Position numbers and translations under genes: made by a program. A stretch of DNA of 56,522 nucleotides from Escherichia phage PDP46: the sequence record PQ783785. One strand, written 5' to 3'. The notes under the pieces are model-generated. The model did no database searches and was not told the DNA's origin. It saw nothing but the letters and a program-made list of their open reading frames with translations. Shown in pieces: positions 42,468 through 44,356 of this stretch. Every line of letters starts with the position of its first letter. Position 1 is the first letter of the stretch.

Positions 42468-43613
42468 TTAAAGTGGACGTGCGCCAGTCGGCATCGTCAC
42501 GGGTTTATTAAAAACAGATTCTGCCAGTGTGCTGTGACCTTTACGCGGGTCACTGTCAGGTACTAAAACTGGCTGACCTTCTGGTTTTGTCGTACACATG
42601 TCAACAAGTGCCGGAGGCAGTGATTTTTCCAGTGTTGACAACGGTTTTAATTTACGTTCGTACAATGTTTCAGGGTTTACACCAAACATGGGTGCAGCAC
42701 CGATCAGTTTTCCTTCGTCCGTAAGCTGACGTCGGGTTTGCTTTGTTGCAAGTTTAAAACCCGGTAAAGCCTTACCCATGCGAACAAAATGTAACCCCTG
42801 AGTATGTAACGCTGTTTTTGCTTCAGAAGAACGCGTATACAGTTCTTCAAGAAGTGCCAGACGACGCGCTACTTCTTCTGGCGTAAGTGATGGTGGTGCA
42901 TCAAGAACAGTAGCCAATTCTAAAATCCTCTCATACATTGCCGGACACATACCACGCGCCGGACAGTAATGACAATGACTACCAACATTTAACGGTGCGT
43001 CTGGTTTATGTGCTTCGTTAAACCCGTGTTTAAATCGTTCAGCCCATTCCATCAATGTTGTCCGGTTAAACTCCCACCGTCTTACAGGTCCGAGTGGGTG
43101 ATAAGCCCGTGGCTGAACAATTGTGAACACAACACGTTTAACAGTATCAATACAACGTTGGTCCAGTGCGTAATAGATCCCCTGTGAATTATCAACTGCT
43201 TCAACTGCTACATGACCGTATTTATAATCCCATACGTAAAGCGTATCAGTATTAAAGTCATACCAGCGATAATCACAGGTTCCGTACTGACCGGGTAACA
43301 ACCAGTCAATGTGAATGCGAACTTCTGAAAACAGCGGATCGAGTTTCGCACCAACTGAAAGAACATCTGCTATAAAGTCATCCGCGTAAATGTGCATGTC
43401 TTCAGTAACCTGAACACCGTTAGGAGCAAGACACGGCATTAATGGCGGTTTACCTTTAATCTTCTGTTCTAACACCCAGTGTCCGGCTGTACCTTCTTCA
43501 GCACTGGGTGACGATGGTTCTACATAGTCAATCCGCTGTGACAGTTGAACGCTACCCGGACAAGCTAACCAACGTTTTGATCCACTGGCACTAAAGGTAG
43601 CGTGACTGGTCAT
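42468..43613 (-). CDS. PD-(D/E)XK exonuclease with Cas4/RecB-like Cys cluster
   Basis: 381 aa; N-terminal WLACPGS and C-terminal CHYCPARGMC resemble a Cas4-type Fe-S arrangement; acidic core VWDYKYG. Confidence 0.6.
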   Translation of the reverse strand: MTSHATFSASGSKRWLACPGSVQLSQRIDYVEPSSPSAEEGTAGHWVLEQKIKGKPPLMPCLAPNGVQVTEDMHIYADDFIADVLSVGAKLDPLFSEVRIHIDWLLPGQYGTCDYRWYDFNTDTLYVWDYKYGHVAVEAVDNSQGIYYALDQRCIDTVKRVVFTIVQPRAYHPLGPVRRWEFNRTTLMEWAERFKHGFNEAHKPDAPLNVGSHCHYCPARGMCPAMYERILELATVLDAPPSLTPEEVARRLALLEELYTRSSEAKTALHTQGLHFVRMGKALPGFKLATKQTRRQLTDEGKLIGAAPMFGVNPETLYERKLKPLSTLEKSLPPALVDMCTTKPEGQPVLVPDSDPRKGHSTLAESVFNKPVTMPTGARPL

Positions 43614-44356
43614 CAGAATGCCCCACCCATTTGTTTAACAGACTCAGCCTGACCGACAATATTTTCAGCATCAGCAGGGGCAGCGTTAATACGTTCAATC
43701 AGTTCGATGATAGATTTCAGTTTCACCGGGTCATCAATCTGCATTACATTCTGAGTTTCATACAGCCCCATGATTCGCTGACTTAATGGCGCGGCACGGT
43801 CACCCGTAATTTGTCCAAACATCTGCATCAGTGCTGACTGAAGAACCTGGGTGTTATAAACTTTAGCTGGATCCGTGGTTACAGGTTGCTCGACTGGTGC
43901 AGCCGGTGCTGCTGGTACAACTGGAGCTACCGGAGCGGCAGGAACCGCTGGAGCAGGATCAACAGGTGCTACATAACCAGGTGCAAGTTCTGCAGGTCCA
44001 GTATAACGCCCTGCTTCAACTGCTTCAGCAATAAGTTCACGTTTAACACCGTCAACAAACGCTTCATCCAGTTTTTTCTTTTGACGCCACAGACCATCAC
44101 CTTTGTTCAGGGATTTACTGTCAGTGTGAATACGCGGATCATGACGCAAACCCCATTTGTCGAACTCTTCAGTGCTCGTTTCGTTATCGTCAACATCTTC
44201 AGTTGGTGCAGATACAACAGGCAGTGATTCAGCAACGACAGAAACGATTTCTTCTTTCGTAATCGGTGCGACATTATTGCCAGCAATCGCTGCTGCCAGA
44301 TTGTTGATCGCAGTTTCCAGACCCGGAGCAGTTACAAGTAATTTAACTTCGAACAT
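43613..44356 (-). CDS. Hypothetical protein with Pro/Ala-rich linker
   Basis: 247-aa first gene of the leftward replication operon; AGAGGA RBS. Confidence 0.4.
   Translation of the reverse strand: MFEVKLLVTAPGLETAINNLAAAIAGNNVAPITKEEIVSVVAESLPVVSAPTEDVDDNETSTEEFDKWGLRHDPRIHTDSKSLNKGDGLWRQKKKLDEAFVDGVKRELIAEAVEAGRYTGPAELAPGYVAPVDPAPAVPAAPVAPVVPAAPAAPVEQPVTTDPAKVYNTQVLQSALMQMFGQITGDRAAPLSQRIMGLYETQNVMQIDDPVKLKSIIELIERINAAPADAENIVGQAESVKQMGGAF

Follow-up and report, generated by a model that had tools for sequence, protein, structure and literature searches.

The early replication-recombination operon of Escherichia phage PDP46 is probably an instance of the published duf2800-gp2.5-pol module. 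We analysed a stretch of 56,522 nucleotides (nt) of this phage (sequence record PQ783785), called the window below. On its minus strand lie a gene that we call X, a nuclease gene of the DUF2800 family, a gene for a predicted single-stranded DNA-binding protein (SSB) of the T7 gp2.5 type, a DNA polymerase gene and then further genes. A 'duf2800-gp2.5-polA module', with no ssb genes nearby, has been described in Gram-positive and Gram-negative phages, and the Gp2.5 family was classed there as a family of single-strand annealing proteins (SSAPs) (Steczkiewicz et al. 2021, PMC8093625). In the window, nuclease, SSB and polymerase follow each other in this order on one strand with no separate ssb gene, and the same gene order was found in Enc34 (ORF5-ORF6-ORF7) and in eight other phage lineages. 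The core genes are as follows.

43613..44356, minus strand: gene X, 247 amino acids (aa), first gene of the operon (phrog_27827)
42468..43613, minus strand: DUF2800 PD-(D/E)XK (RecB/AddB/Cas4-like) nuclease, 381 aa (PF10926, 1.6e-57; PF12705, 8.6e-7; phrog_69 'exonuclease', 7.9e-90)
41457..42452, minus strand: T7 gp2.5/Enc34 ORF6-type SSB, candidate annealing protein, 331 aa (PHROG, fold, RefSeq orthologue Sasha gp63)
39520..41376, minus strand: family-B DNA polymerase, 618 aa, last core gene of the module (phrog_1252, 2.7e-214)

An earlier note, made from the letters of the window, had described three genes behind tandem promoters: one for a Pro/Ala-linker protein, one for a PD-(D/E)XK exonuclease with a Cas4-like cysteine cluster and one for a decapeptide-repeat protein. 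All three open reading frames (ORFs; 44356..43613, 43613..42468 and 42452..41457) are indeed on the minus strand. The span it gave for them, 42468-44356, covers X and the nuclease; the repeat protein, which is the SSB, lies just outside it (41457..42452).

With a 3.2-kb query across the region described in the note, nucleotide identity was 96-97% to the Salmonella phages Sasha, Sergei and Solent and the E. coli phages PJ16, AVIO78A and Bas82, and approximately 77-79% to 9NA and several Klebsiella phages. On the strength of these matches the window is assigned to the Sashavirus/Nonanavirus-type (9NA/Sasha-like) siphophage genomes.

The nuclease and the single-stranded DNA-binding protein

As judged from its sequence, the product of the middle gene is a PD-(D/E)XK nuclease of the RecB/AddB/Cas4 type that has a cluster of four cysteines, in agreement with the earlier note. 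Pfam DUF2800 matched the protein over its full length (E = 1.6e-57, 195.8 bits against a cut-off of 21) and PDDEXK_1 matched at 8.6e-7. Seven orthologues with 22-49% identity, taken from other phage genera, were aligned with the window protein; E97, D114 and K131 were invariant in all eight. Position 129 was Asp in all but one protein, which had Glu, as the (D/E)xK motif permits. A QxxxY motif (Q144-x3-Y148) was also present. Four cysteines, C18, C214, C217 and C223 (C-x195-C-x2-C-x5-C), were likewise invariant in the eight orthologues. This C...CxxCx5C arrangement is that of Cas4 and AddB, and the cluster presumably holds an iron-sulphur (Fe-S) cofactor.

43221..43274, minus strand: nuclease catalytic core D114 ... 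D129-x-K131 (alignment of 8)
42945..42974, minus strand: C214-x2-C217-x5-C223, forming with C18 (43560..43562) the Cas4/AddB-type four-cysteine cluster

Relatives of the nuclease were detected by tblastn in 1088 of 50,697 phage records, which is a lower bound for DUF2800 nucleases. A search of PDB sequences, with the single sequence or with a profile, gave no match, so no solved relative was detectable. The DUF2800 nuclease of phage Bas14 (B14T) resembles AdnA/RecB, and its catalytic residues are required for it to trigger retron type IX (bioRxiv 10.64898/2026.07.14.737667). The window nuclease is a DUF2800 protein like B14T, and it shares the PD-(D/E)XK core with QxxxY and the C...CxxCx5C layout with B14T and with the nuclease domains of AddB, AdnA and Cas4. 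It differs in standing alone as a protein of 381 aa, without a helicase partner domain.

The Cas4-type cysteine cluster next to a PD-(D/E)XK core, and the annotation of several orthologues as 'CRISPR/Cas system associated protein', might also suggest a viral Cas4 that interferes with spacer acquisition by a host CRISPR system and is not a recombination enzyme. This is highly improbable. The Pfam match is to DUF2800: the Cas_Cas4 model gave no match, and DUF2800 and PDDEXK_1 alone were reported at E<=0.01. The same cysteine cluster occurs in AddB. The context is a phage replication operon, in which the gene is fixed between X and the SSB in >80 diverse phages.

For the downstream gene of 331 aa, structure prediction indicates a T7-type SSB with an oligonucleotide/oligosaccharide-binding (OB) fold. 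We made an alignment of 31 sequences and an AlphaFold2 model, which had a predicted local distance difference test (pLDDT) score of 93-98 over residues 1-170. In the model, strand E38-46 is followed by a 15-residue helix, H57-71; a long helix straight after strand beta2 is the hallmark of T7-type SSBs (Cernooka et al., PMC5686142). Foldseek against the PDB gave nine matches at E<=0.001, all of them T7-type SSBs: 4JG2, 4KLK, T7 gp2.5 (1JE5) and Enc34 ORF6 (5ODJ/5ODK/5ODL). Their E values were 3.5e-9 to 3.6e-6, with a probability of 1.00, and the next match was at E=0.035. The model shares with T7 gp2.5 and Enc34 ORF6 the OB fold and the long capping helix directly after beta2 (Foldseek E ~1e-7), but just 13-18% of the sequence is identical. 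When PDB sequences were searched with the SSB, the matches were artefacts of Pro/Thr or Pro/Ala linkers, and 4JG2 stood at E=0.24.

41883..42452, minus strand: SSB residues 1-190, OB-fold domain with long helix (57-71) after strand beta2 (AlphaFold2 model, Foldseek)
41599..41852, minus strand: 30-nt tandem repeat array encoding the AAPTPAAAPV linker (Tandem Repeats Finder)
41469..41591, minus strand: SSB residues 288-328, small folded C-terminal module TYE..GW[TN]D..L...GY.V (conserved in the alignment; hidden Markov model (HMM) E=2.3e-23)

Family searches pointed the same way. The protein matched PHROG 7011, 'Gp2.5-like ssDNA binding protein and ssDNA annealing protein', at 2.8e-100, and its orthologues in Sasha (gp63), 9NA and Bas82 are named 'Gp2.5-like ssDNA binding and annealing protein' in RefSeq. 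Homologues at 39-68% identity bear PF10991 (Enc34_ssDNA-bd, formerly DUF2815). The conserved ssDNA contacts of T7-type SSBs are an aromatic residue where beta4 begins and basic residues of the cleft. In the model, tyrosines Y139-Y141 are found where strand 140-149 begins, and the family has two invariant basic residues, K47 and R13; the residue alignment to Enc34 ORF6 is unreliable.

The earlier note had recognised no RecT/Erf/Red-beta-like protein and had suggested that one of the proteins flanking the nuclease might be a divergent annealing or ssDNA-binding partner. Its observation is confirmed: neither flanking protein had a RecT/Erf/Red-beta match in Pfam or PHROGs, which were searched for these proteins and not with SSAP models for every protein of the window. 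The suggestion of a partner is supported for the downstream protein by PHROG 7011 and the T7-type fold matches. That note had proposed profile comparisons with SSAP and SSB families. In our searches PHROG 7011 identified the SSB, its alignment to Enc34 ORF6 was weak, and all tests of X were negative for SSBs and SSAPs. The note would have given up the idea had both flanking proteins been assigned to unrelated families. The downstream one is in an SSB family and X matches no Pfam or NCBIfam family, so the second flank is not placed in an unrelated one.

We infer an annealing activity of the SSB from T7 gp2.5 and from the classification of Gp2.5 as an SSAP family (PMC8093625); the dual SSB and annealing role of T7 gp2.5 and Enc34 ORF6 is presumed to be common to the window SSB. 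The module could instead be purely replicative, with the gp2.5-like protein serving as fork SSB only and the nuclease removing primers or degrading host DNA to obtain nucleotides, like the gene 6 exonuclease of T7. The genes are in one operon with the polymerase and opposite helicase and primase genes, and no other SSB is present in the window, so the gp2.5-like protein must serve replication. In T7, gp6 and gp2.5 both have replication roles. We nevertheless regard an exclusively replicative function as unlikely, since T7 gp2.5 is both replication SSB and annealing protein, Gp2.5 counts as an SSAP family (PMC8093625) and RecB/AddB/AdnA-like nucleases are end-resection enzymes. Both roles are compatible.

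No E. coli-type SSB was detected in a six-frame translation of the whole window. Bas82 has an E. coli-type SSB gene (Bas82_0054, L131:30145-30537, ending DFDDDIPF) after its tail genes, an acquisition; no counterpart was found anywhere in the window, where the corresponding site is ~33218..33500.

T7-type SSBs finish in a long acidic tail (PMC5686142). The window SSB differs from T7 gp2.5 and Enc34 ORF6 in that a Pro/Ala arm of ~85 residues and a folded module of ~40 residues replace this tail. The C-terminal 48 residues have a net charge of -2, and the terminal aromatic residue (Tyr331) is the sole retained feature of the tail. The arm is encoded by a 30-nt unit repeated 8.7 times with 93% matches (Tandem Repeats Finder). 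The decapeptide repeat of the earlier note is evident in its eight AAPTPAAAPV-type units: residues 208-285 consist of seven full copies of AAPTPAAAP[VI] and one copy of eight residues. Pro and Ala make up 76% of residues 196-283, and the model shows the linker as disordered (pLDDT <50). The end module (residues 288-328), which we call GWTD, is predicted to fold as beta-alpha-alpha-beta over residues 285-320 (pLDDT 83-96), and the protein ends in NGNGY.

The length of the repeat arm varies among near-identical relatives, whose SSBs have 261, 267, 297, 303, 331 or 343 aa. Linkers of the SSB (261-343 aa) and of X (245-257 aa) are both length-variable among relatives with >92% identity. In other genera, each of the two proteins has its own lineage-specific Pro-rich repeat, such as PEVPVAA in X and AAP in the SSB of MSW-3. 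On the opposite strand of the repeat array, an ORF of 163 aa rich in Cys, Arg and Trp (CCRWCRRCYR..., 41526..42017, plus strand) arises when the Pro/Ala repeat is read as its reverse complement, and it almost certainly does not represent a gene.

Many genera have DUF2815 proteins with the GWTD module (~35 residues) at their C-terminus, among them phages of Klebsiella, Proteus and Vibrio and the Burkholderia phage BcepB1A. In the window it is confined to the SSB. In four loci, it was inside X (L045:3-833(-), L038:2036-3004(-), L058:10015-11013(-) and L094:605-1654(-); E 1.6e-16 to 3.3e-9), and in two loci it was inside a superfamily 2 (SF2) helicase (L067:827-2791(-) and L126:603-2597(+); E 3e-7 and 1e-6). 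This distribution suggests a shuffled protein-interaction module. The Pro/Ala arm and the end module probably dock the SSB onto partner proteins, taking the role of the acidic tail. In T7, the tails of gp2.5 and gp4 both contact the polymerase. By analogy with these, the occurrence of GWTD in X and in helicases of relatives would fit a model with a shared partner.

Gene X and its pairing with the nuclease

In the window, the stop codon of X and the start codon of the nuclease overlap as TGATG, and the two genes appear to be translationally coupled. An X homologue is the first operon gene in Gorganvirus, Jedunavirus, Xuquatrovirus, Rigallicvirus, Yokohamavirus, Vibrio phage 138 and a Rhizobium phage. 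In all of these, X is directly upstream of the DUF2800 nuclease, followed by the DUF2815 SSB and the polymerase, with a divergent helicase.

A degenerate DNA pattern encoding GLPWDxRIH matched 120 loci in IMG/VR, all with an X-motif ORF. Every locus with at least 1.5 kb of downstream sequence (80 of 80) had a DUF2800 ORF directly downstream of X on the same strand. Gaps between the stop-to-stop segments of the two genes were -324 to +600 nt, and the count includes 16 loci with larger overlaps. An SSB was present, in the order nuclease, SSB, in 55 of the 57 loci with at least 3.5 kb of downstream sequence, and a divergent helicase was upstream of X in 69 of 81 assessable loci. The X proteins of these loci formed 85 clusters at 50% identity and 107 at 70%. 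In brief, X is always the immediate upstream neighbour of the nuclease in assessable loci, and this pairing appears undescribed. X accompanies only a subset of DUF2800 modules (~150 phage records compared with 1088).

An exhaustive HMMER search of 1.84 billion representative proteins with X gave 395 relatives at E<=1e-3, of which only three were beyond E=1e-30. In the libraries searched, the family (phrog_27827, phrog_11133 and phrog_29341) amounts to several hundred clusters. No Pfam or NCBIfam family matched X; phrog_27827 has no assigned function, nor do the related phrog_11133 and phrog_29341. From the N- to the C-terminus, the common architecture is a short strand-helix, an acidic spacer, the motif with a helix that ends in AEL, a linker rich in proline and a helical domain. 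The motif reads D-x2-G-[LI]-P-W-D-x-R-I-H-x3-K ... D-G-x-W-[RK]-x-[RK]-[RK]; in the alignment, D66, G69, I76 and W90 were invariant and D73, R75, H77, G88 and E107 almost so. In its composition, the linker agrees with the Pro/Ala linker seen in the earlier note.

44012..44173, minus strand: X residues 62-115, 'WDxRIH ... DGxW[RK]x[RK][RK] + helix' motif domain (pLDDT 86-96)
43862..43981, minus strand: X residues 126-165, Pro/Ala/Val-rich linker, 78% P/A/V (composition; relatives' proteins 245-257 aa)
43616..43861, minus strand: X residues 166-247, predicted four-helix bundle (AlphaFold pLDDT 83-96)

X is always adjacent to the nuclease gene and overlaps it, as in SynExo pairs, and the conserved domain of X is rich in W, R, H and K. 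X might on these grounds be a true, very divergent RecT/Rad52-like SSAP paired with the nuclease, with the gp2.5-like protein as SSB only. Two homologue labels point the same way: the protein of Pseudoalteromonas phage B8b is called 'RecT' and that of Proteus phage 2207-N35 'recombinase'. The 'RecT' label could be traced to a BLAST match of E=1e-4 to a so-named protein (PMC4294664). None of 42 members of the X family matched the Pfam models of SSAPs (RecT, Erf, Rad52, Sak) or SSBs, even at E<=1. The X profile matched only E2 and other Pro/Ala linkers among PDB sequences. A Foldseek search with the X model found nothing significant in the PDB (best E=0.73, a generic helical bundle), and in BFVD it found uncharacterised family members only, plus one labelled 'RecT'. 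The conserved core of ~55 residues is also far below known SSAP cores. We therefore give an SSAP function of X little credence.

Other labels on X homologues were rejected as label slips or low-complexity artefacts: 'helicase' (AVIO78A, PJ16), 'putative TonB receptor protein' (Solent) and 'ribonuclease E/G family' (Rhizobium phages). No family model tested backs any X label, the 'recombinase' of 2207-N35 included. Equivalence of X to Enc34 ORF3 or ORF4 was rejected too, as neither Enc34 protein has the X motif. In the literature, of which our coverage was incomplete, we found no mention of the X motif or its PHROGs.

The polymerase and a permuted X-like subdomain

The window polymerase (618 aa) had no Pfam match at all. 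It carries the family-B motifs DxxSFYPN, KLALNGVYG, NTDG and KRKGAY and weakly matched archaeal PolB and E. coli Pol II in the PDB (E 0.013-0.25). It belongs to a PolB lineage that is compact and poorly characterised. A polymerase of this family-B type was present in each of the seven genomes of X-bearing phages that were tested (E 5e-68 to 2e-267). Enc34 is a phage without X, and its polymerase had no match to the window polymerase at E<=10.

In the IMG/VR loci, five polymerase ORFs matched the X-motif HMM near their C-termini. HMMER aligned the two halves of the motif separately and in swapped order. For example, residues 654-677 of the L118 polymerase (GTWKRKAKISDSNFNAVMREIAGQ) matched HMM positions 28-51, whereas residues 678-700 (SGQLDSAGVPWDARIHTGNRSKH) matched positions 3-25.

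L118:1439-3685, minus strand: polymerase with permuted X-motif copy near the C-terminus (HMMER; also the next four)
L106:6109-8262, minus strand: as above
L068:8462-10597, minus strand: as above
L070:8445-10613, minus strand: as above
L039:4317-6476, plus strand: as above

From the swapped order of the halves, we conclude that the central domain of X is, to judge by the HMM alignments, homologous to a circularly permuted subdomain of its cognate family-B polymerase. At least a shortened subdomain, such as WDERIHTKNKSKH, was present in all 12 polymerases of the IMG/VR set with complete C-termini. Three polymerases, those of the window, of 9NA and of Proteus phage 2207-N35, had a deletion of ~38 residues exactly there in the alignment; in the window the deletion point is between E576 and R577 (~39640..39690, minus strand). 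The position downstream of the KxY-like KRKGAY motif would place the permuted subdomain on the thumb side. A strict pairing of the SSB GWTD module with the WDxRIH subdomain of the polymerase was considered and rejected: L106, L070 and L039 have the subdomain and no detectable GWTD in the SSB.

X may be an accessory or adaptor subunit of the nuclease, linking it to DNA or to the replisome; this is a tentative assignment. It follows from the apparent translational coupling, the constant position upstream of the nuclease and the homology of the central domain to the polymerase subdomain. X would bring to the nuclease a polymerase-like domain for contact with DNA or with a partner. A stronger form of this assignment, which we consider rather unlikely, would make X an obligatory third subunit of a DUF2800/gp2.5/PolB machinery. 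The free-standing permuted polymerase subdomain, lost from the 9NA/Sasha/Proteus-phage polymerases, would then be a common docking or DNA-contact element, and GWTD a new replisome-hub module acting like the acidic tails of T7 gp2.5 and gp4.

The place of X as first gene behind the early promoters and its acidic stretch (residues 46-65, net charge -7) could also suit a host-takeover factor, such as a RecBCD inhibitor like Gam, Abc2 or gp5.9 that protects the ends used by the phage nuclease. Lambda has gam beside bet and exo. The best-conserved part of X is the WDxRIH domain, which is common to the phage polymerase family and not to host-directed inhibitors, and the X family covers phages of alpha- and gamma-proteobacteria, very different hosts. 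Inhibition of RecBCD by X is quite improbable, and an adaptor to the nuclease remains our preferred, if tentative, assignment.

Operon layout and proposed mechanism

Two divergent operons make up the region. The plus-strand operon encodes the SF2 helicase (44527..46188), an Rv2179c-like 3'-5' exonuclease, a small nuclease-family protein and a D5/NrS-1-type primase-helicase (47398..49752). The intergenic region ahead of X is 170 bp long and has two promoter-like sites on the minus strand, which share the upstream start AAAATAnTTCTTGAC. Promoter-like matches in general were not above chance (9 seen, 9.4 expected from shuffled sequence). The proximal site was invariant across Sasha, Bas82, 9NA and Carvaje, although the genomes are just ~77% identical there. 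Between the SSB and polymerase genes there is a perfect hairpin, ATGGGGC-6-GCCCCAT, and the Sasha record annotates a terminator at the same place. This hairpin may lower the output of polymerase relative to X, nuclease and SSB, which would be made in excess.

44527..46188, plus strand: divergent SF2 (ResIII/Helicase_C) helicase (Pfam)
44451..44480, minus strand: distal sigma70-like promoter TTGACG-18-TAACAT, kept within Sashavirus, only partly in 9NA and Carvaje
44389..44417, minus strand: proximal sigma70-like promoter TTGACA-17-TAAAGT with A-rich upstream element; TAAAATAATTCTTGACA invariant in Sasha, Bas82, 9NA and Carvaje
41397..41416, no strand assigned: G+C-rich hairpin, terminator-like on both strands, between the SSB and polymerase genes

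The region had no Rfam family and no tRNA. A second recombination-related gene, for a full-length RdgC homologue of 304 aa (1811..2725, minus strand; PF04381 E=1.3e-115; phrog_724 'exonuclease recombination-associated'), is ~40 kb away from the module.

In the mechanism that we propose, the nuclease would resect double-strand ends, and the gp2.5-like protein would coat the exposed single strand and promote annealing of complementary strands as T7 gp2.5 does. Together they would act as a two-component recombinase that circularises the genome, forms concatemers and repairs breaks, and the same SSB would also serve the replication fork. Such an enzyme pair would be of use for circularising and concatemerising a genome that is packaged by the headful mechanism, which phages of the 9NA type reportedly use.

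The arrangement resembles lambda Red (Exo/Beta) and the RecE/RecT SynExo pair in its adjacent exonuclease and annealing-protein genes, its early operon and the proposed resect-and-anneal reaction. It differs in that the nuclease is RecB/AddB/Cas4-like with an Fe-S-type cysteine cluster, unlike lambda Exo and RecE, in that an OB-fold protein of the Gp2.5 superfamily, and not one with a Rad52-like fold, is the candidate for annealing, and in the presence of a third conserved gene, X. With Enc34 and the duf2800-gp2.5-pol module it shares the order of DUF2800 nuclease, DUF2815/gp2.5-type SSB and polymerase, beside primase and helicase genes. In contrast to Enc34, the polymerase is of family B and unrelated to the Enc34 enzyme, the module is headed by X, which Enc34 lacks, and a Pro/Ala repeat arm that leads to a folded C-terminal module stands where the acidic tail of the SSB would be.

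Several points weigh against this interpretation of the operon. The PF10991 match of the SSB (E=1.7e-5, 25.0 bits) is 1 bit under the Pfam gathering cut-off of 26, and hhalign of the 31-homologue SSB profile with Enc34 ORF6 reached a probability of 19.6%. The aromatic residues of Enc34 ORF6 that stack on ssDNA could not be mapped confidently onto the SSB. The acidic tail that functionally defines T7-type SSBs is absent, and the last 21 residues have a net charge of 0. X has no homology to any characterised protein, and the grounds for its adaptor role are synteny, gene overlap and domain sharing only. Polarity of the nuclease, its Fe-S cluster, binding to ssDNA and annealing are each a matter of inference.

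The nuclease-SSB module in this phage group is already known and annotated, because RefSeq names the orthologue Gp2.5-like and the module has been published. Our analysis confirms, in agreement with RefSeq, that 9NA/Sasha-like phages bear this known module of a nuclease and a gp2.5-type SSB/annealing protein. The pairing of X with the nuclease, the permuted polymerase subdomain and the GWTD module that replaces the tail may be new; we found no paper on them in the part of the literature covered. They provide leads for phage replication biology: a widespread protein that accompanies the nuclease and shares a domain with the polymerase, and a subfamily of SSBs that has exchanged the canonical acidic tail for a length-variable Pro/Ala arm and a small folded end module. 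Knowledge of the partners of DUF2800 nucleases, one of which is a retron trigger, would help in the design of recombineering tools and in the study of defence triggers.

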